Source: a bacterium HR16
GTDB lineage: Bacteria; Armatimonadota; HRBIN16
NCBI GenBank assembly: GCA_002898895.1
Contig: BEHS01000001.1
Span: forward strand, 7,106-71,105
Direction: 5' to 3'
Length of the DNA: 64,000 nucleotides
A program made the position numbers and the translations under genes. Positions within the stretch are counted from its first letter, which is position 1. Each line of letters opens with the position of its first letter. The notes under the pieces were generated by a model, which was not told where the DNA came from, did no database searches, and saw nothing but the letters and a program-made list of their open reading frames with translations. This document shows positions 18,105 through 46,930 of this stretch, piece after piece.

Positions 18105-18245
18105 GTTATGCTGAACGAAGTGAAGCATCTCCGAGATTCTTCGCTTCGCTCAGAATGACAACCTTTTACTGTCGTGCTGAGCGTCAGCGAAGCATCTCAG
18201 CGTGACGATAAAACGAGATTCTTCGCTCCCCCTCAGAATGACAGG
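18105..18245. repeat. family-1 hairpin repeats (GTCATTCTGAGCGAAGCGAAGAATCTC paired with GAGATGCTTCGCT..CTCAGCATGAC), two units
   Basis: Imperfect inverted 27-nt arms. Further clusters at 22157-22294, 23423-23603, 38174-38250 and 46481-46592. Confidence 0.65.
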
Positions 18246-22156: not shown

Positions 22157-22294
22157 TTGTCATGCTGAGCGTTGGCGAAGCATCTCGCTCTTTTTGTCAT
22201 GCTGAACGCAGTGAAGCATCCCGGAGATTCTTCGCTCCGCTCAGAATGACAGGGAAACCAGCCCATCGTGCCATGCTGAGCGAGGCATCTCATT
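22157..22294. repeat. family-1 hairpin repeat cluster (four arms)
   Basis: TTGTCATGCTGAGCG..GAAGCATCTC and GAGATTCTTCGCTCCGCTCAGAATGACAGG. Confidence 0.6.
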
Positions 22295-23422: not shown

Positions 23423-23603
23423 CCTGTCATTCTGAGCGCAAGCGAAGAATCTCGCTCCATCGCCACAAAAAGATGCTTCGCTCACGCTCAGCATGACAGT
23501 AAACGGTTGTCATTCTGAGCGAAGCGAAGAATCTCCAAGATGCTTCACTTCGTTCAGCATGACAAAAAGGCGGGATGCCGAGCGTCAGCGGAGCATGACA
23601 AAA
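23423..23603. repeat. family-1 hairpin repeat cluster (five arms)
   Basis: CCTGTCATTCTGAGCGCAAGCGAAGAATCTCGC ... GATGCTTCACTTCGTTCAGCATGACAAA. Confidence 0.6.
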
Positions 23604-32931: not shown

Positions 32932-34026
32932 CTACTCCTCCTCTACGTCCCTCTCCACCCACACGAATCGCGGCGTTTTCGCGTCGGCGAAGTTCAGCTC
33001 CACCAGCCGACGGAACAGCTGCTCCTCCATCACCTGCTCTGCGAGATCCCTTCGCAAGACGCGAAAATAGAGCTGCATCACGCGATAGTGCACCTTGCCT
33101 AACGCCAACGACCCCGTGCGCATCCCCTCGTCGGTCGCCAGCGTCTGCCCCAATACCGCCCGCGCAATCTCCTTGTTATGAAACTGCACCGCCTGCAGAT
33201 ACGCCGCGCCAACAGGTGACTTGCCCTCTAACAACTCGATCTGCACGTCCTCCGGCAGCACTACCGCCGTCTCCTGCTGGATACGGTCCAGCACCTCCAG
33301 CAGCTCTCGCCGTTCGGCTTCGGGCACATGGCGCGGAACCACCCCCTTCACCGTCGGCGCACCGAACTTCTCCAGCGACAACAGCCAGAACTTCAGCAGC
33401 AACCCCTTCGCCCACCAGTGCTTGTACGCCGCGCGCAGGTCACTGCGCCCCGTCGGCGATTCGTAACTGCCGTTGTAGGAATACACCACGAACTTCTCGG
33501 CGGGCAGAGGCTTCTCCTCACCCGCAGGCGTGCGCAGGTACAATGCCTTCAGGTTTCGGAACTCATCTGTCTCCAGCCGGAACAGGCGGGGCGGTTTGCT
33601 CTTGATGCTCTGCCATATCACCATCCCGCTCCACGGCTCCTGCTCGCACAGCGTGTAGTTAATCTCCTGCACCGAGTAGCCGTGCGCTAAGGCGTCCAGC
33701 GCGTTCAGCAGGATGCGGATCACCGAACCGCGCAGCTGCCCCAGCGCAAAGCGCACCAGCTCCGCCGCCCGTTGTGATGGCGCGTCTTCGCCACCGGGCA
33801 CGATTTGCCAGTCCGCGTCCAGCACGCCGAACTTCTTGGTGGTGAGCGCAGACTGCACCTGCGCATCGGTGAGCATCTCCTCGTACACCCGCTCTCCGCG
33901 CGTGCGAAGCAGGTCGTTCGCATCCCCTGCGCCACCAAAACGAAGGGCGGCGATGGGTTCCACCGCCGCCTGCTCCCGGTCCAGTCCGCGCCGCCTCACG
34001 CGACGCCATAGCTGCGAAAACACCAT
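32932..34026 (-). CDS. hypothetical protein, possibly phage portal-like (DUF935/Mu gp29-like)
   Basis: Weak recollection-based similarity (KFWLLSLEKFGAPTVKG region). Prophage head genes are nearby at 36978-41976. Confidence 0.3.
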   Translation of the reverse strand: MVFSQLWRRVRRRGLDREQAAVEPIAALRFGGAGDANDLLRTRGERVYEEMLTDAQVQSALTTKKFGVLDADWQIVPGGEDAPSQRAAELVRFALGQLRGSVIRILLNALDALAHGYSVQEINYTLCEQEPWSGMVIWQSIKSKPPRLFRLETDEFRNLKALYLRTPAGEEKPLPAEKFVVYSYNGSYESPTGRSDLRAAYKHWWAKGLLLKFWLLSLEKFGAPTVKGVVPRHVPEAERRELLEVLDRIQQETAVVLPEDVQIELLEGKSPVGAAYLQAVQFHNKEIARAVLGQTLATDEGMRTGSLALGKVHYRVMQLYFRVLRRDLAEQVMEEQLFRRLVELNFADAKTPRFVWVERDVEEE

Positions 34027-34051: not shown

Positions 34052-35308
34052 TTATCCCAACACCACCAGCGCGTCCTCCGGCGTGGTGACCACCTGCGCC
34101 CCGCTTGCCTTCAGCCGCTCTATGATTTCCATCGCCTGCCCGCTGGTGAAGTCGCGCTCCTGCCAGTTGCAGTCCGCCAGCAGCACCCGTTTGCCCGCCC
34201 GTTGCGCCTCCTCTACCGCCTGCAGGTTCGCCAGGTTGCCGTATCCAAACGCCACCGGCGCAACGAGTATCGCATCCGCCCTCGCCAGCGCGTCGCGCAG
34301 TAGGGCAAGGCTCTCGGCTGAGATGGGCGTGAACGGCGCCTCCGTGATGACCTCTGCGCCCAGCTCCTGCGCTACCTCCTCGTCGCTATCCAGCAGGTGC
34401 AACACCCCCACCGAAAGATGCCATCCCGCCCGCGCCAGCGCGCCAATCCATCCCGCGCCCGTCCCTCCACCGCAGATCACGTGCACACGCCTGCCGTTGC
34501 CCGCCTGCGACTCCACGTGCTGTAACGTGCGTGGCAACACATGCGGACGCCCCGTCGCCGGATTCACCCGTACCCACGCATCCAGACCGAACACCCGCGC
34601 CAGCAGGGAGGGGGTAATCACCTCCGACGGCGCACCGTCCGCCACCAGCTGCCCCTGTCGAAGCACAACCAGCCTGTCGCAGAACTCTGAAGCGAGGTTG
34701 ATGTCGTGTAGCGCCGCCAGCACCGTCAACCCCTCTTCGCGATTGAGCTGGCGCAGTAGCGAAAGCGTGCCCACCTGATGCGCTACGTCTAGGTGCGTCA
34801 ACGGCTCGTCCAGAAACAGCAAGGGCGTCTCCTGCGCTAACCCACGCGCCAGCACCACCCGCTGACGCTCGCCACCGCTGAGCGTGCCGAAAGCGCGTTC
34901 CGCCAGCGACAGGCTGTCCGTGCGCTCCATCGCCCGCCGAGTCGCCTGCATGTCCTCCGCGCGCTCTTTGCCCCACCAGCCGATGTACGGCGCGCGCCCC
35001 AGCAACACCACCTCCCACGCGGTGAAACCGAACGCCACGTCCTCACGCTGGGGCACAAACGCCAGCCTCTGCGCCACATCCTTCGCCCGCAGCTGAGCCA
35101 GCGGTTGTCCGTCCAGCCACACCTGTCCCTTTTGCGGCTTTAACACTCCGCTGAGCACGCGCAACAGCGTGGACTTGCCGCTGCCGTTCGGTCCCAGCAA
35201 GCCCACAAACTCACCGCGCGAGATACACAGGTTGATGCCCTTCAATACAGGCGTTGCACCGTATCCCGCCCAGATATCTTCAGCACGTACGATTTCTGTA
35301 TTCACCAT
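34052..35308 (-). CDS. ABC transporter ATP-binding protein (FecE/BtuD-like) fused to a C-terminal about 170-aa domain of unknown function
   Basis: Walker A GPNGSGKST, ABC signature LSGGERQR, Walker B LLFLDEP, H-loop. C-terminal extension with GGGTGAG Gly-rich loop. No adjacent permease or substrate-binding genes. Confidence 0.75.
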   Translation of the reverse strand: MVNTEIVRAEDIWAGYGATPVLKGINLCISRGEFVGLLGPNGSGKSTLLRVLSGVLKPQKGQVWLDGQPLAQLRAKDVAQRLAFVPQREDVAFGFTAWEVVLLGRAPYIGWWGKERAEDMQATRRAMERTDSLSLAERAFGTLSGGERQRVVLARGLAQETPLLFLDEPLTHLDVAHQVGTLSLLRQLNREEGLTVLAALHDINLASEFCDRLVVLRQGQLVADGAPSEVITPSLLARVFGLDAWVRVNPATGRPHVLPRTLQHVESQAGNGRRVHVICGGGTGAGWIGALARAGWHLSVGVLHLLDSDEEVAQELGAEVITEAPFTPISAESLALLRDALARADAILVAPVAFGYGNLANLQAVEEAQRAGKRVLLADCNWQERDFTSGQAMEIIERLKASGAQVVTTPEDALVVLG

Positions 35309-35311
35309 TGC

Positions 35312-35340
35312 TTGACAATCCGCTTGTCCGGTGCTATGAT
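35312..35340 (+). promoter_or_regulatory. sigma-70 consensus promoter TTGACA-N17-TATGAT
   Basis: Perfect -35, 17-nt spacer, -10 TATGAT. About 75 nt upstream of the HAF-protein start. Confidence 0.5.
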
Positions 35341-35416
35341 TGCTCCGCCAGCTCGGCATAAGTTTCGCCCGTTCCCACCCGGGCGAGCCTCACTGTGAGA
35401 AAGGAGTGGAAACGAA

Positions 35417-37935: not shown

Positions 37936-38244
37936 TCACCACTCCTGTACTTGCTTGATGATGTGTTCACGTATCGCTTCTTCGATGGCGTAAACGAGCG
38001 CAACGTCCACCTTCAACCTGTCCGCTAACCTCTCTCTCGTAGCCTGCGGTAACCGTAGCGCCCGCTCTTCCAGCCATCGCAGTACCAGCTGTTTCAGAAC
38101 TCTCTTCACCGTTGTCTCTCCTGATAGTCTGTCAGGTGTGATTCTCGTGGCTGTGGCGAGGCGGTCTTGCCTTGCTGTCATTCTGAGCGAAGCGAAGAAT
38201 CTCGTGTTATCGCCACTCCGAGGTGCTTCGCTGATGCTCAGCAT
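37936..38244 (-). CDS. hypothetical phage-module protein (N-terminal part of ORF overlaps a family-1 repeat, so true start probably internal)
   Basis: First about 30 codons are the translated family-1 repeat (SISEAPRSGDNTRFFASLRMT). Likely starts near VKRVLKQLV. Confidence 0.25.
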   Translation of the reverse strand: MLSISEAPRSGDNTRFFASLRMTARQDRLATATRITPDRLSGETTVKRVLKQLVLRWLEERALRLPQATRERLADRLKVDVALVYAIEEAIREHIIKQVQEW

Positions 38245-39835: not shown

Positions 39836-40762
39836 CTAGCTCGCGTTACTGCCGTAAGCAGTCTGCCACAAACCGTAGCCCACGCCGTAACGCGCTCGCG
39901 CGCCGTAATACACCACGTCCCGCAGGAACACACTCTCGCTCACCGACGGGTCCTCCAATGCCGAGAACTCCACCGGCACATCCGACCGCTCCTGCAGAAT
40001 CACCGCACGCACCGCCCGGCTGGTGTCCAGCACAAACCACTGATTGCCTGTGATATACGGGCTGACCACCAGCCTCAGCGCACCTTGCAGCACGTTGCGA
40101 TACGGTGTGTTGTCACCCGTGCCCGCTTTGACCACCACCACCTGCGACTCCAGCAGCTCCATCGCCGCCCAGCGCAGGCGTGGACCCACCAGCAACGTAT
40201 CCGGCAGGATGCCCAGCGGCACGCCCTGATCGTCCTTGAACAGCATCATGCTGGAGATAGCGCTCTGCAGGCTGTCGGGATTCAGCGGTTGGGTGGTGAC
40301 GTTGCTCTGTGTGCCGCTCTCGCCCTCCGAGTGTGCGCTGGAGAAGAGCGGTTGACCGTCGTAGCACGTCTGGCTGAACCCGTCCAGTAACGCTTTCACC
40401 ACCAGATAGTCCTTGTGCCGTGCCGCCTCGCGCCCCAAATCCTGCACCCGCAGTCGGATGGCTCCAATCTGTTCGTCCTCCAGAGCGCGTCTCTCTACCG
40501 CTATTGTGCTCTCCCACACCGTGTCCTGAATGGTGTAGTTATATGCCCGTAAGCCCTTCGGCATGCGCTCGTCCACAAACTCGCGCATCGCAGGCACACT
40601 GCCCAGCCACCCGTACTTCTGCACAGGCAGCTCGGTCTGAATCACCGTTGCAATCTGCGGATAAATCGCCGACTCCACCTGCCGTCGATACGCCTCAAAA
40701 AAGTCTGCACGCAAACCCGCCTCCAGCAAGGCGCCCATTTCGCTCCGTGTAATCGCTGGCAT
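39836..40762 (-). CDS. Mu-like prophage major head subunit (gpT family)
   Basis: Length about 305 aa and conserved gpT-like blocks (YPQIATVIQTELPVQKYGWLG..., QGVPLGILPDTLLVGP, NQWFVLD). Confidence 0.7.
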   Translation of the reverse strand: MPAITRSEMGALLEAGLRADFFEAYRRQVESAIYPQIATVIQTELPVQKYGWLGSVPAMREFVDERMPKGLRAYNYTIQDTVWESTIAVERRALEDEQIGAIRLRVQDLGREAARHKDYLVVKALLDGFSQTCYDGQPLFSSAHSEGESGTQSNVTTQPLNPDSLQSAISSMMLFKDDQGVPLGILPDTLLVGPRLRWAAMELLESQVVVVKAGTGDNTPYRNVLQGALRLVVSPYITGNQWFVLDTSRAVRAVILQERSDVPVEFSALEDPSVSESVFLRDVVYYGARARYGVGYGLWQTAYGSNAS

Positions 40763-41193: not shown

Positions 41194-41976
41194 CTATCGC
41201 CTCCTTCCTTCCGACAGATAACGGGCAATCTGCTCGGGGGACAGGTCGCCCCAGTACTTGCGCAGGAACGCCTCCTCTTCCACGCTCAGCGTGTGCTCCT
41301 GCTCGCCTGCAGGTGCGATCTCGCCAAAACGCACAGTCGGCGGCAACGCCTCCACAAAACGGGCGAACACCTCCGCCACGCTCGCGCTACCGCCTGCAAA
41401 GGTCACTGCCTGCGTGCCCTGCAGGAGCAGTGTCTTCGCCATCTCGCGCGTCGCCGGCGTCAGCTTCCCCTGCCTAAGCCATCGCTGCAACGTCTCCTCT
41501 ACCTGTCGCTCGCGCAGGGCAAACTCTGCCGCCTCCGCCCGCCGACGCAACGCCTCCATGTCCTGTTCCAACGCGGTCACCTCCGTCAAAAGTATCTCGC
41601 CCGAAAAAGCCACCGCGCCCGCACTCAGCAGGCGCGCATCCGCCACACGCGGAGTCGCGGTCACCGACACCTCCACAATCCGCTTCAGGTCGGGCGTCAC
41701 CGCCACGCTGATGCCGCGAATGCCCAGCCGTTTCAGCAACGCCTCCGCTTCCGGCAGCAGGGTCAGCCGCCCGAACAGCTCCTTGCCCCGTCGCCACAAC
41801 CGCTTCAGCTCTCCAATCTGCCATCCCTGCGACAGGTGCTCCACCATCAGCGGAACCGGCGCGGTGAAGCCCTCCACCAGCGATTGCAACTGCTCCTCGC
41901 CCACTTCCAGCCCCTTGTCGGGATAGGAGCCGGCTTCAAACAGCTTCGCCTCTCGCTCCACTTCCAACGCGCTCAC
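41194..41976 (-). CDS. Mu-like prophage protease/scaffold (gpI-like)
   Basis: Position directly upstream of decoration and major head genes. Central coiled-coil (ALEQDMEALRRRAEAAEFALRERQVEETLQRW) typical of scaffold. Confidence 0.45.
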   Translation of the reverse strand: MSALEVEREAKLFEAGSYPDKGLEVGEEQLQSLVEGFTAPVPLMVEHLSQGWQIGELKRLWRRGKELFGRLTLLPEAEALLKRLGIRGISVAVTPDLKRIVEVSVTATPRVADARLLSAGAVAFSGEILLTEVTALEQDMEALRRRAEAAEFALRERQVEETLQRWLRQGKLTPATREMAKTLLLQGTQAVTFAGGSASVAEVFARFVEALPPTVRFGEIAPAGEQEHTLSVEEEAFLRKYWGDLSPEQIARYLSEGRRR

Positions 41977-42195: not shown

Positions 42196-42978
42196 ATGGA
42201 GGAGCTGACAGTAACAATCGGAGCAGGAGGGGAACAGGTTGACTTAAATGACATCAGTCAACTTGCGAACCATTTCTGCAAGGCGATACGGGAATTGGCG
42301 CGCGAGCTCACAGGTCAGGAAAAACCCCGTGTCGACATACCTGTCGTACGGGTCGCATCTGGCAGTGTTGCAATGACAATAGGGCCAATGTCCCGTACGC
42401 AAAGCAGTGAGAGCCTCCCGCTGGCGAAATACGTGTTTGAAGACCTGTCTGGCATTCTCGCCCAAACACCGCGTCCTACTATGTCCGTCGACCTGTACAG
42501 GGCTTACACCGAAGTTATTCGTGCACCCCGCAATACCATACCGTACTCCGTGCTGTACGGGAAACGCTTTATCGAAGTCAACGAGCAGGTCAGGCAGCAG
42601 GTGCATCAGATGTCCGAGTACATTCGCGTTCCGCATGCTTCCGTGGTCGGCACTATCGAGAGTGTAAACATTCACAGGATGCCTTATGTTTTCATGCTTT
42701 ATACAAAAGTGGAGCCACGCCAGCACGTCGAATGCCGATTCAGAGACGACGAGTTCCTTCCTGCGGTCACCGACATCCTGAAATCCAGAAAGATGGCAGA
42801 GATAAAAGGAACCGCATACTATGCTCCTGTAGGCATCTTTCCTCTCAGGATAGATGTAGAGGAGCAACCCATGAAGCTGGAATATTCCCCTGAAGACCTC
42901 CTGAGCTATGTGGGACGATTACACATTGTCCCCGAGGGCGTGACAGTGGAGAAATATCTGGAACGAGAGTGGGAGTAA
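42196..42978 (+). CDS. hypothetical protein (260 aa), partner of downstream PIN-domain protein
   Basis: ORF in a lower-GC segment preceded by an extended -10-like TGgTACAAT at 42134-42142. 8-nt gap to the PIN gene. Confidence 0.5.
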   Translation: MEELTVTIGAGGEQVDLNDISQLANHFCKAIRELARELTGQEKPRVDIPVVRVASGSVAMTIGPMSRTQSSESLPLAKYVFEDLSGILAQTPRPTMSVDLYRAYTEVIRAPRNTIPYSVLYGKRFIEVNEQVRQQVHQMSEYIRVPHASVVGTIESVNIHRMPYVFMLYTKVEPRQHVECRFRDDEFLPAVTDILKSRKMAEIKGTAYYAPVGIFPLRIDVEEQPMKLEYSPEDLLSYVGRLHIVPEGVTVEKYLEREWE

Positions 42979-42985
42979 CCTATCG

Positions 42986-43501
42986 ATGCCAGAAGGTTCT
43001 GATAATAAACCTCGCTATTATTGGGACACTTGCTGTTTCATTCACGTTCTGGACGTTCACAGCAGGAAACGGGCAGCGCAAGATGAGCAGGCGCAGCAGA
43101 TGGTCTTTTTTCTGGAGCAGGCGTTCCGCGAGGCTGTGGAAGGCAAGGTACAACTGGTCACGGCTGAATTGCTTCTGGCAGAGATCCTACCTGTAGATGA
43201 TGACCATAAGAACTTTCTGAAACAGGTTAAAGCCTGCCCCTACATCGAGCTGTTAGCGGTAAGCAGGCAAGTTTTTGAACTGGCTGGACGTCTACGTGCG
43301 GAGTGGCGCACGCACAGCAGGAGCGACCTCAAAACGCCCGATGCCGTTCACATTGCTACTGCGCTACTCTTTAAGCCCGATGAGATGTGGACTACTGATG
43401 ACCGCATCTTGAAATTGTGTAATCCGAGCGAGGGCACATACGGAGAATTGCGGATTGTGCGCCCCCATGCCCTTCCACAAATGCGTCTCCCTGACCTATA
43501 G
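42986..43501 (+). CDS. PIN-domain protein (VapC-like ribonuclease)
   Basis: Acidic PIN residues in YYWDTCCFI, DAVHIATAL and TTDDRIL motifs. Confidence 0.8.
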   Translation: MPEGSDNKPRYYWDTCCFIHVLDVHSRKRAAQDEQAQQMVFFLEQAFREAVEGKVQLVTAELLLAEILPVDDDHKNFLKQVKACPYIELLAVSRQVFELAGRLRAEWRTHSRSDLKTPDAVHIATALLFKPDEMWTTDDRILKLCNPSEGTYGELRIVRPHALPQMRLPDL

Positions 43502-44307
43502 GAGGTGCGTGGCGGATGAACACCCTCTACTACGGCGATAACCTCGACATCCTGCGTAAACACCTGCAGGATGAAACAATAGACCTCATCTACCTCGACC
43601 CGCCCTTCAACAGCGCACGTGACTATAACGTGCTCTTCCGCGAGCAGTCGGGTGAACCCGCGCAGGCGCAAATCAAAGCCTTCACCGACACATGGCAATG
43701 GAGCGAACGCACCTACGTGCAGTTCTGCGAGGAGTGTCCCAAACCCGCCCTTGTGGAACTGCTACAGGGCTTCGTCAAAACACTGGGGCGCAACGATGTC
43801 ACCGCCTATCTGGTGATGATGGCGCCCCGACTGGTGGAACTGCACCGCGTGCTCAAACCCACCGGAAGCCTCTACCTGCACTGCGACCCCACCGCCAGCC
43901 ATTACCTCAAGGTGATGCTCGACGTCATCTTCGGAGCGCGTAACTTCAAAAACGAGATCGTGTGGAAACGCACCAGCGCACATAGTGGGGCAAAAAGATG
44001 GGGACCTGTTCATGACACCGTTCTGTTCTATACAAAGAGCGATACATACACGTGGAACAAAGTTTTCAGCCAGTTTGATGCTAAGTACGTCGAGGAGTTC
44101 TACAGATACGAGGACGATAGAGGCAGGTATCAGCTGGTAGACCTTACAGGAGCGGGAGTTCGCTATGGGGAGTCAGGTCAGCCTTGGAAAGGGGTGAACC
44201 CCACTGCTGTTGGCAGGCATTGGGCAGTTCCGCAAAAGCTGGTAGAGGAAGTGGTTGGGAGGGAACGCGCGTCGCAATTAAGTGTGCAAGAGAAACTGGA
44301 TGCACTA

Positions 44308-45492
44308 GTACTTGACCTCTCATCAATCTTGTGGTATAATCTCGCTAATTTGCTAACAGGAGTGCAACCATGCGAAAATACAGCGTCCAATTGACCGAGC
44401 AAGAACACGAGCAACTGACCGACATCATCCGCAAAGGCAAAGCACCTGCCAGACAGATCACCCGCGCCCACATCCTGCTCAAAGCACACAACGGCGAACG
44501 CTACGCCGACATCGCCCACGCTGTGGGGGTCAGCGAGGTCACCGTCACCACCGTCTGTCGGGAGTTCCAGACGCTGCGCACCGACGCCATCTATCGCAAA
44601 CGCCCCAATCGCGTGTATGCCCGCCGACTGGACGGCGCAGCAGAAGCGCAGTTAATTGCTCTGGCTTGCAGTGCGCCACCGGAGGGACGGGCTTCGTGGA
44701 CGATGCAGTTGCTGGCAGACCGGATGGTGCAGTTGGAGGTGGTGGAGACCATCTCCGCCGAGACAGTGCGTCGTACGCTGAAAAAAACGACCTTAAGCCT
44801 TGGCAGAAGCGTTTCTACTGCATCCCCCCAGAGGCAAACGCGGCGTTTGTAGCGGGGATGGAGGACGTGTTAGACGTGTATCAGCGTGCTTACGACCCCC
44901 ACAGACCGGTGTTATGCCTGGATGAGTTGCCGGTGCAGTTAGTGGGTGAAGTGTTCACGCCGTTGCCGATGGAGCGAGGCAAGCCGAAGCGCGAGGATTA
45001 CGAGTATAAGCGGGAGGGCACAGCGAGCGTGTTCATGGTGTTTGAGCCGCTGGCAGGCAAGCGTTATCTGTTTGTGCGCTCCCGTCGCACAGCGTGTGAT
45101 TGGGCGGAGGTGATGCAGCAGATAGCAGACGAGTTATATCCTGAAGCGGAGCGGATAGTGATGGTGATGGACAATCTGAACACGCACGATGTGGCGTCGC
45201 TGTATAAGCGTTTTGTGCCTTCGGAGGCGTGGCGATTGCGTCAGCGTTTTGAGATACACCACACACCGGTTCACGGTAGTTGGTTAAACGTGGCGGAGAT
45301 CGAGTTAAGCGTGTTAGTGCGTCAGTGTTTGGAACGTCGGATAGGGGATATAGGGGCGTTAGACCGGGAGGTACAGGCGTGGGCGCGGTTGCGCAATGAG
45401 GCGTGCGCTTGTGTGGACTGGCAGTTCACGACGGCGGACGCCCGCATCAAGTTGAAGCGTCTCTACCCAAAGATTGAGGAGAGGTGATGTAC
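44308..45492 (+). mobile_element. IS630/Tc1-mariner family insertion sequence (1185 bp) with TA target-site duplication
   Basis: Imperfect 23-bp terminal inverted repeats GTACTTGACCTCTCATCAATCTT / AAGATTGAGGAGAGGTGATGTAC flanked by TA (44306-44307 and 45493-45494). Two overlapping transposase ORFs. Confidence 0.85.
44370..45487 (+). CDS. IS630-family transposase (orfA HTH plus orfB DDE, joined by programmed -1 frameshift)
   Basis: Slippery A7 run A_AAA_AAA_C at 44782-44788. orfA ...LKKTTLSLG in frame 0, and -1 frame continues [18 protein letters not shown]... with the DDE region. Confidence 0.75.
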
Positions 45493-46480
45493 TAGAAGAG
45501 GCAGGCTATATTGTATGGCCCGAGAAAGGGCGAGTGCCCCGCTACAAACGGTATCTGGACATGAACCCCGGTAACCTCATTCAGGACGTTATCACCGACA
45601 TCAACCCGATTTCCTCTCAAGCCCGTGAGCGTCTTGGCTATCCCACACAGAAACCTATCGCCCTGCTGGAGCGAATCATTCTCGCGTCCAGTAACGAGGG
45701 CGACGTAGTGCTGGACCCCTTCTGCGGATGCGGAACCGCCATCGTCGCCGCCCAGAAGTTGAAACGCCACTGGGTCGGCATCGACATCACTCATCTTGCC
45801 ATTGCGCTCATCAAATACCGTCTCGCCGACATGTTTGACCTGCGTGAGGGCAAAGACTACCTCGTTGTCGGCGAACCCACCACCGTCGAGGACGCCCGTG
45901 CCCTTGCCCATCATGACCGCGACGAGTTTCAGCGGTGGGCAATCGGGCTTATCCCCCGTGCCCGTCCCTATCAAGACAAAAAAGGCGCGGACACCGGCAT
46001 CGATGGCGTGCTCTTTTTCAAAGACGACCCAGACGACCCCAAGAAGGTGGTGATTCAGGTCAAAAGCGGGCACGTGGGTGTGAAGGACATTCGCGACTTT
46101 CGTGGGGTGATGGAGCGCGAGAAAGCCACTCTCGGCTTGTTCGTTACCCTTGACGAACCCACCCGCGCCATGCAGACCGAAGCGGAGAGCGTCGGCTTCT
46201 ACGTCACCCCGCTGGGCAAACTGCACCTGCCTCGCCTGCAGATTCGCACCGTCGAGCAGCTCCTGCGCGGCGAGGGTTTCCAGATACCCGGTGCGGCGAT
46301 GCTGATGGGCGTCTCCCGTGCCGAGCGCGTGCAAGAACAGTTCCGCCAGGGCGAGCTGGAGATGTAATCACGCGGACAGTGTTCACCTGCCCTGTCTTGT
46401 CCGGCAGCCGATGCTATAGACCCTGTACTGTAGAGCGCCAAGGCACGACTGCTTGAATGGGAGCAGACCGTTTCCACTTA

Positions 46481-46592
46481 CTTGTCATTCTGAGCGAAGC
46501 GAAGAATCTCGTTGTATCGCCACCCTGAGATGCTTCACTTCGTTCAGCATGACAACAAAATCCTGTCATTCTGAGCGAAGCGAAGAATCTCA
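46481..46592. repeat. family-1 hairpin repeat cluster (three arms)
   Basis: CTTGTCATTCTGAGCGAAGCGAAGAATCTCG / GAGATGCTTCACTTCGTTCAGCATGACAAC / CCTGTCATTCTGAGCGAAGCGAAGAATCTC. Confidence 0.6.
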
Positions 46593-46615
46593 AATGGCAA
46601 CGCGACCATCCTTCT

Positions 46616-46640
46616 GGAGGGCGAGGCTCCATCCGAGCCG
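46616..46640. repeat. family-2 hairpin repeat, solo copy
   Basis: GGAGGGCGAGGCTCCATCCGAGCCG. Confidence 0.5.
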
Positions 46641-46930
46641 TTGAGGGCATTGTGTTCGGCTGTAGCCGCAGGCTTATGGACTTTGAAAAAATAAAGCGAT
46701 TTAACCTCTCCCCCGGCCCCTCTCCTACAAGGAAAGGGGGGCCTCGCGTCGAATGCCCCCTTCCCTCGTAGGGAAGGGGGACAGGGGGTTAGGTTGAATA
46801 CACCTCGCCTCCAAGACCCTTCCCGAAGCTGCGGGAAAGGAGATGAGGGGATAAATACGACTATTTTTCAAAACTCATTAGCCTGCGCTTCTCCAAACAG
46901 AAGACGACTATTAGCGCACGCGCCCCCTTG

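Follow-up and report, generated by a model that had tools for sequence, protein, structure and literature searches.

This report concerns an insertion within a 64,000-nucleotide (nt) stretch of DNA from bacterium HR16 (assembly GCA_002898895.1, contig BEHS01000001.1, positions 7,106 to 71,105), referred to as the window. In hot-spring studies, HRBIN16 is a family-level clade of the Armatimonadales (PMC9671151). At the locus, genes for an orphan protein of 260 amino acids (aa) (HRbin16_00051, 42196..42978) and a 171-aa PIN-domain protein (HRbin16_00052, 42986..43501) precede a methyltransferase gene that starts at 43516 and ends at 46367, and this third gene is interrupted by an IS630-family insertion sequence (IS) of 1185 bp (44308..45492). 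The IS carries two transposase open reading frames (ORFs), ORFA (HRbin16_00054, 44370..44852) and ORFB (HRbin16_00055, 44786..45487). All of these features lie on the forward strand, and the products of ORFA, ORFB, the PIN gene and the orphan gene match the four HRbin16 entries exactly.

The interrupted methyltransferase gene

The methyltransferase gene persists as two native parts. The first (43516..44307, +) comprises codons 1-264 and extends from motif IV through most of the variable target-recognition region, and the second (45495..46367, +) comprises codons 265-554 and the stop, with the YPTQKP sequence, motif I and an Mrr_cat domain. As the gene now stands, the N-terminal ORF (43516-44394) continues into the IS for 28 codons and a stop (44308..44394, +), and the truncated product is 292 aa long. 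Deletion of 1187 bp, the IS and one TA, leaves a 1665-nt ORF that encodes 554 aa with no stop, and neither half of the gene contains further stops or frameshifts. In the healed protein, the Pfam model N6_N4_Mtase (PF01555) covers aa 22-367, including the junction L264|E265, with 150.2 bits (cut-off 26.7). Motif IV (DPPF, aa 28-31) precedes motif I (DPFCGCGT, aa 338-345), which is the beta-class order. Between its two lobes the methyltransferase has a variable region, and the insertion point is at the end of it, parting motif IV upstream from the S-adenosylmethionine (AdoMet)-binding motif I and the nuclease-like domain downstream.

Thousands of full-length homologues of the methyltransferase were found, the top ones in a set of 5.8 billion proteins being intact Armatimonadota proteins of 554-556 aa. 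Two of these (P0001 and P0002) cover the whole of the healed protein (100%) at 85-86% identity, gap-free at L264|E265, and every residue invariant among 11 aligned sequences is retained. A natural two-subunit enzyme was rejected as an explanation of the two methyltransferase ORFs, since single 554-aa proteins are colinear with the pair and the upstream ORF runs into IS sequence. Matches among the sequences of solved structures in the PDB included M.RsrI, M.MboIIA, CcrM, DpnA and type III Mod, beta-class enzymes with the same order of motif IV, variable region and motif I (FCGCG). The protein also matches PADLOC models of type II and type III methyltransferases, and reaches no NCBIfam equivalog. 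Its homologues are named 'adenine-specific' by their sources, and these names together with the DPPF motif suggest N6-methyladenine as the methylated base; the beta-class enzyme is probably of the N6-adenine type.

Compared with the other beta-class enzymes, the methyltransferase has an extra C-terminal domain, a feature absent from the sequence-only reading, an earlier account of this DNA made from its letters and ORFs. Pfam places Mrr_cat at aa 426-496 (46 bits, cut-off 21), and the NA-iREase1 model, which describes an 'inactive REase', fits the same domain about equally (40 bits). The signature of Mrr, a type IV restriction endonuclease, is D...QxK, and the resembling residues D434 and Q452-V-K454 are invariant across 11 aligned family members. 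The nuclease-like domain is here fused behind a methyltransferase and not to a winged-helix reader domain as in Mrr. It had no match among PDB sequences, and a literature search for a fusion of Mrr_cat with N6_N4_Mtase returned nothing relevant and no studied member of the family.

The ends of the IS and its target site

The left end of the IS begins GTACTTGACCTCTCATCAATCTT... and the right end, read as reverse complement, begins GTACATCACCTCTCCTCAATCTT..., the two agreeing at 20 of their first 23 positions and 24 of 29. These terminal inverted repeats (TIRs) lie at 44308..44334 (+) and 45466..45492 (-), and the transposase stop codon is contained in the right one. With the flanking CTA/TAG included, the pair forms the top inverted repeat of the region (32 nt, 84%), and the window contains the left-end sequence once, against 0 times in 100 shuffles. 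The TA at 44306..44307 is duplicated at 45493..45494 on the other side of the element. Direct repeats at the junctions reach at most 5 nt (ACTAG), which leaves the exact cut ambiguous within 5 nt; any choice restores ...GATGCAC-TA-GAAGAGG. Since all cut choices lead to one restored sequence, the original target was CTAG.

The sequence-only reading had described an 1185-bp IS630-family element with imperfect TIRs of about 23 bp and a TA duplication, splitting a beta-class methyltransferase whose pre-insertion sequence could be reconstructed. Its coordinates stood, alignment confirmed both the TIRs and the TA on either side, and the frame that opens on removal of the IS and one TA aligns as two contiguous halves with single intact homologues under one methyltransferase model. 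The assignment to IS630 was likewise borne out, by the TIRs, the TA duplication and the transposase scores given below.

Two further sequence features touch the IS. The tetranucleotide CTAG is strongly depleted in the window, with 17 occurrences against ~232 expected by base composition, and two of the 17 derive from the IS junctions. A perfect 14-nt inverted repeat connects the interior of the IS (44844-44857, CGTTTGTAGCGGGG) with the C-terminal half of the methyltransferase gene (45537-45550, CCCCGCTACAAACG), at an estimated chance expectation of ~0.004-0.01 in 1.4 kb. It is probably a coincidence, because the residues encoded by the two arms (AFVAG and PRYKR) are conserved.

The transposase and its recoding site

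A predicted sigma-70-type promoter, TTGACC-17-TATAAT with a TG extension, is located inside the left end of the IS (44312..44340, +), matching at 11 of 12 positions, and is the sole promoter-like site in 43300-46700. A Shine-Dalgarno sequence (AGGAG, 44358-44362) follows, 7 nt ahead of the ATG of ORFA. ORFA encodes the 160-aa helix-turn-helix DNA-binding part of the transposase (HTH_32, HTH_29 and HTH_28 on the fused protein), and ORFB, in the -1 frame, encodes the DDE_3 catalytic domain between an AAC codon and a TGA stop. Gene callers report only the 209-aa ATG-initiated portion of ORFB. The fused transposase is 372 aa long and scores 223.4 bits with the NCBIfam model NF033545 transpos_IS630 (cut-off 100), as well as 81.7 bits with DDE_3 and 43.2 bits with HTH_32 in Pfam. 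Among 8000 homologues, the named ones are IS630 family transposases. Single-ORF IS630 transposases align with the fusion over its full length at 54-61% identity, gap-free at the shift site, and the family-invariant residues and conserved acidic motifs of the fusion are intact.

The element shares with the IS630 family (the bacterial branch of Tc1/mariner, named after IS630 of Shigella sonnei) a size of ~1.2 kb, short imperfect TIRs, a DDE_3 domain with an N-terminal helix-turn-helix, and the obligatory duplication of a TA target, here within CTAG. It differs in that its protein is at most 61% identical to that of any other lineage found. In a plasmid collection, the IS matched other IS630 transposase genes only weakly, with up to 73% DNA identity over short stretches.

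ORFA and ORFB overlap at a run of seven adenines (A7; 44781..44787, +). The zero-frame codons at 44778-44789 are CTG AAA AAA ACG, placing the run in the register AAA_AAA_A. A -1 slip of tRNA-Lys on the second AAA, or the addition of one A to the mRNA, would give the sequence ...LKKNDLKPW..., which aligns gap-free with the single-ORF relatives. A -1 slippery site with the register A_AAA_AAA_C had been proposed in the sequence-only reading; recoding at the A-run agrees with the gap-free fusion and with the conservation of the site, and the register required correction to CTG AAA AAA ACG.

The arrangement of an A7 run with ORFs of 160 and 208/209 aa is kept in all of four close lineages, which diverge by 8-22% at the nt level. 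Among distant relatives in GTDB genomes, 55 of 77 have the -1 arrangement at a homologous run of six to eight adenines (A7 in 33, A6 in 11 and A8 in 11). These relatives span many phyla and include multi-copy identical sets, and those that are in frame have either one additional A (AAA AAA AAC) or no run. In 11 relatives, A_AAA_AAA is in register, with the codons TTA/CTA AAA AAA ACG. The ratio of nonsynonymous to synonymous divergence (dN/dS) is 0.17-0.28 for ORFA and 0.14-0.23 for ORFB, by which measure both transposase frames are under purifying selection. Judged by this conservation and selection, the A7 run is no random lesion.

A DNA-binding ORFA and a catalytic ORFB in the -1 frame, joined by recoding, are common to recoding IS630 elements. 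The IS630 element of Roseiflexus reportedly uses a T5C5 motif and a nascent-RNA hairpin, with the loss of one C, whereas here the KKN codons contain the motif, an A6-A8 run in the register AAA_AAA_A. IS630 is among the IS families listed in a review as using frameshifting, which cites the Roseiflexus element as a case of transcriptional realignment (PMC5009743), and A7 runs are prone to both ribosomal and transcriptional slippage (PMC4066793). The two processes yield the same protein, and sequence therefore cannot separate them; transcriptional slippage would be as good a mechanism at the A7 run as a ribosomal frameshift.

Run length may also vary within one sister lineage. An A8 run and a continuous 371-aa transposase ORF are found in a Logan contig (L013:480-500, SRR15510186), while the near-identical copy L012 has A7 and two ORFs. 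The A8 could be a real run-length polymorphism or a sequencing or assembly error.

Related IS copies

Related copies of the IS were recovered at 92% (L003), ~79% (L012) and ~77% (L004-L007) nt identity to the copy in the window, with L003 and L004-L007 at different insertion sites. The product of ORFB in L012 is identical to HRbin16_01070, which means that HR16 has another IS from this group. Both ends were recovered for five of the related copies (L003, L004, L005, L006 and L012); all five occupy different sites and are flanked by TA on both sides, making six of six with the window IS included. In the diverged lineage, changes at the left end are paralleled at the right, as in real TIRs. IS630 prefers CTAG as its target. 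The related copies depart from a CTAG-only rule and insert at NTAN, their targets being CTAG, CTAC, GTAG and ATAG with a constant TA.

The lineages are mosaic. The window IS is 57-72% identical to L012 and L013 over the first 500 nt and 98-99% identical over IS positions 900-1100, and the synonymous divergence (dS) is ~1.2-1.4 for ORFA against ~0.3-0.5 for ORFB. This pattern points to exchange between co-resident ISs by recombination or gene conversion. The flanks of L006 (1-30 and 1205-1242) are inverted repeats of each other (GTGCTTTGTTAAG... and GTGCTCTGTTAAG...), and the left flank of L012 (L012:30-55) ends in ...CTTGACAGAGTAATA, which resembles the right end of the IS. Such IS-end-like flanks suggest nested or tandem insertions, or derivatives of the miniature inverted-repeat transposable element (MITE) type.

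The three-gene operon and the uninterrupted site in relatives

The methyltransferase gene is the third of three tightly spaced genes. The product of the first (42196..42978, +) matches no model in Pfam, PHROG, PADLOC or NCBIfam and in the set of 5.8 billion proteins it has only four relatives, each with 75% identity or more. Its AlphaFold2 (AF2) model, with a predicted local distance difference test (pLDDT) value of 34, is too poor for a fold search. The product of the second (42986..43501, +) is recognized by the Pfam PIN model (E 9.6e-6, 26.7 bits, cut-off 23.6). The pair may form a toxin-antitoxin-like or defence module.

The closest methyltransferase homologue is encoded in a metagenome-assembled genome (MAG; GCA_033578435.1, contig L008), where it is preceded by a 268-aa protein without known function and a 170-aa PIN protein in the same order as in the window. 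By BLAST, L008 649-2742 corresponds to window 42196-44294 (76% nt identity) and L008 2753-3628 to window 45492-46367, from the insertion point to the methyltransferase stop (81% nt identity). The two sequences are colinear across the empty site once the IS and one TA are removed from the window. The similarity extends from the first gene of the trio to the methyltransferase stop, limits that match the tightly spaced genes and thus indicate that the three are inherited as a unit.

Three further homologous loci (L009-L011) have the methyltransferase gene alone or as tandem paralogues, without the PIN gene, and the glycosyltransferase and M48 peptidase genes found downstream in the window also occur in one of them (L010). 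The sequence-only reading had raised the loss of a restriction-modification system; no separate restriction endonuclease gene was recognizable beside the methyltransferase in the window or in L008-L011. Members of the family on plasmids are up to 48.5% identical, occur on rhizobial plasmids and have no consistent partner gene, and one plasmid homologue has an annotated restriction endonuclease upstream. In a Fimbriimonadales genome (AP024673.1, L009:6001-9737), tandem methyltransferase-Mrr_cat paralogues of 558 and 547 aa (P0024 and P0070; 78% and 65% identical to the healed protein) stand with no other restriction gene.

The junction in independent assemblies

The left junction of the insertion recurs at 99.9% identity in two independent Logan contigs, L001 and L002, from the unrelated runs ERR14841040 and ERR14841024, each of which differs from the window once, by a T to G at 44332. 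This difference falls in the IS-encoded tail of the 292-aa fragment and explains why an exact look-up of that fragment failed; neither the fragment nor P0122 was on record. Since the same junction is present in two independent assemblies, a MAG chimera is very unlikely. The ends of both contigs inside the IS suggest that repeats may be present in those samples.

Discussion

Taken together, the data make it very probable that an IS630-family IS disrupted a gene for a beta-class methyltransferase-Mrr fusion, the third gene of its operon, and that this IS looks functional and depends on recoding. The element would have transposed by a cut-and-paste route into the TA of a CTAG within the part of the 554-aa gene that encodes the target-recognition domain, duplicating the TA in the process. 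Given that catalytic motif IV is parted from motif I and the nuclease domain, the gene is now a pseudogene. A methyltransferase whose lobes reside on separate, unlinked fragments is presumably non-working, and the associated methylation would be lost. The IS itself, whose ends and transposase are intact and which has a promoter and a ribosome-binding site of its own, appears functional and may be active at present. The halves of its transposase would be joined either by a slip of tRNA-Lys on A_AAA or by RNA polymerase adding one A.

The absence of extra stops and frameshifts together with the perfect TA duplication indicate that the event is young on a mutational timescale. The sequence-only reading had called the IS recently active, a view that retains this indirect support from the undecayed halves and the perfect duplication. 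It is opposed by the lack of an empty allele and of a second identical copy in the collections searched and by the presence of the same insertion in all three datasets that hold the allele (the window and the two Logan runs). With neither a second identical copy nor an empty allele at hand, we infer, rather than observe, recency and present mobility.

The A7 run lends itself to another reading, in which the IS is a dead relic and a one-base deletion inactivated what was once a single-ORF transposase. The single-ORF relatives indeed have AAA AAA AAC at the same codons, the sister-lineage contig L013 has A8 and a continuous ORF, and only one insertion site is known for the exact IS. However, a single deletion in a dying element is hard to reconcile with a one-A-short arrangement kept in four close lineages and 55 of 77 distant relatives, with purifying selection in both frames, and with intact invariant residues, TIRs and promoter, and we regard this reading as improbable.

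The undecayed gene halves and the exact in-frame healing could also be read as signs of a reversible or regulatory switch, in which excision restores the methyltransferase in a phase-variable manner, or in which the IS drives a C-terminal fragment with the AdoMet-binding and Mrr-nuclease parts in a new role. An in-frame TTG at 45474, in the right end of the IS, opens a 297-aa ORF over the C-terminal half. This TTG nevertheless lacks an evident ribosome-binding site, the right end showed no outward promoter, and neither the 5.8-billion-protein set nor the JGI metagenomes yielded an empty allele. Cut-and-paste excision of the IS630/Tc1 type, moreover, normally leaves a footprint. A switch is accordingly very improbable. 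Least credible of all is an assembly artefact, a repeat-induced chimera that placed the IS inside an intact gene, for although the source is a MAG contig (HRbin16) and L001 and L002, assembled from short reads, end within the IS as is usual at repeats, the left junction recurs in assemblies of other runs, chimeric joins do not yield a precise TA duplication, a TIR-bounded element and exact restoration of the frame, and no intact allele exists among the 5.8 billion proteins.

Several observations nonetheless weigh against disruption by a functional, recoding-dependent IS. At the A7 run, the canonical X_XXY_YYZ heptamer is out of register and only the tetramer A_AAA is in register. RNAalifold on four sequences found only a weak long-range stem downstream (-14.7 kcal/mol, covariation term -2.1). 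The right junction was seen in the window alone, as both Logan contigs end inside the IS. There was no empty allele of the exact gene among the 5.8 billion proteins, the best intact relative being 86% identical, and an empty-site junction scan of JGI metagenomes gave 0 hits. A TIR scan of JGI metagenomes and an exact-pattern scan of GTDB genomes for both TIRs also gave 0 hits each, and neither blastn nor tblastn revealed a second IS copy within the window. The sequence-only reading had proposed a search for further IS copies and empty sites; none of these collections yielded a further copy of this exact IS or an empty allele. DNA methylation and cutting by the intact enzyme, finally, are predictions from sequence.

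The methyltransferase-Mrr family usually lacks a partner endonuclease, and the combination of a methyltransferase with an invariant D...QxK nuclease raises the idea of an uncharacterized single-polypeptide restriction-modification or defence family that would act with the orphan and the PIN protein as a three-gene module. We consider this idea unlikely. If it were true, the IS insertion would be a snapshot of safe module loss, with methylase and nuclease gone at once; for an enzyme that contains both modification and nuclease activities, one insertion removes both, and the loss would therefore be tolerated.

The insertion event is real and cleanly reconstructable, but ordinary in kind, and current understanding is not challenged by it. 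For annotation, four ORFs (HRbin16_00053 to 00056-type) reduce to one methyltransferase pseudogene and one IS with a recoded transposase. The element provides a clean example of an IS630 transposase that would depend on A-run recoding, at a site conserved across many phyla, and with its natural A7 (split) and A8 (fused) variants it could serve to test ribosomal against transcriptional slippage in thermophiles. The locus also points to a large family in which a methyltransferase is fused to an Mrr domain and of which the literature searched contained no studied member.

Genomic context

The sequence-only reading had set the methyltransferase in a defence island, which the neighbouring genes do not support: the PADLOC matches are to the methyltransferase, with weaker hits to an ABC ATPase (34052-35359) that NCBIfam identifies as a corrinoid/haem transporter ATPase, and the surroundings consist of prophage remnants and housekeeping genes. 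Upstream of the operon lie a Mu-like portal fragment (32932-34026, -), a Mu-like major head subunit gpT (39836-40762, -) and a Mu-like head maturation protease (41194-41976, -). These head genes are out of their usual order and mixed with the ABC-transporter ATPase and a HAF-repeat protein, and the region looks like a decayed or rearranged prophage that ends beside the orphan-PIN-methyltransferase operon. Downstream of the methyltransferase are genes for a family-2 glycosyltransferase, an M48 peptidase and a GNAT protein.

A 28-nt intergenic repeat, TGTCATTCTGAGCGAAGCGAAGAATCTC, is present in six copies in the window (0 expected), at 18133-18160(-), 22224-22251(-), 23508-23535(+), 38176-38203(+), 46483-46510(+) and 46564-46591(+), and a similar sequence occurs in L008. 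Just past the end of the methyltransferase gene, one of the six and an imperfect inverted copy (46527-46554) form a hairpin resembling repetitive extragenic palindromic (REP) or MITE sequences.

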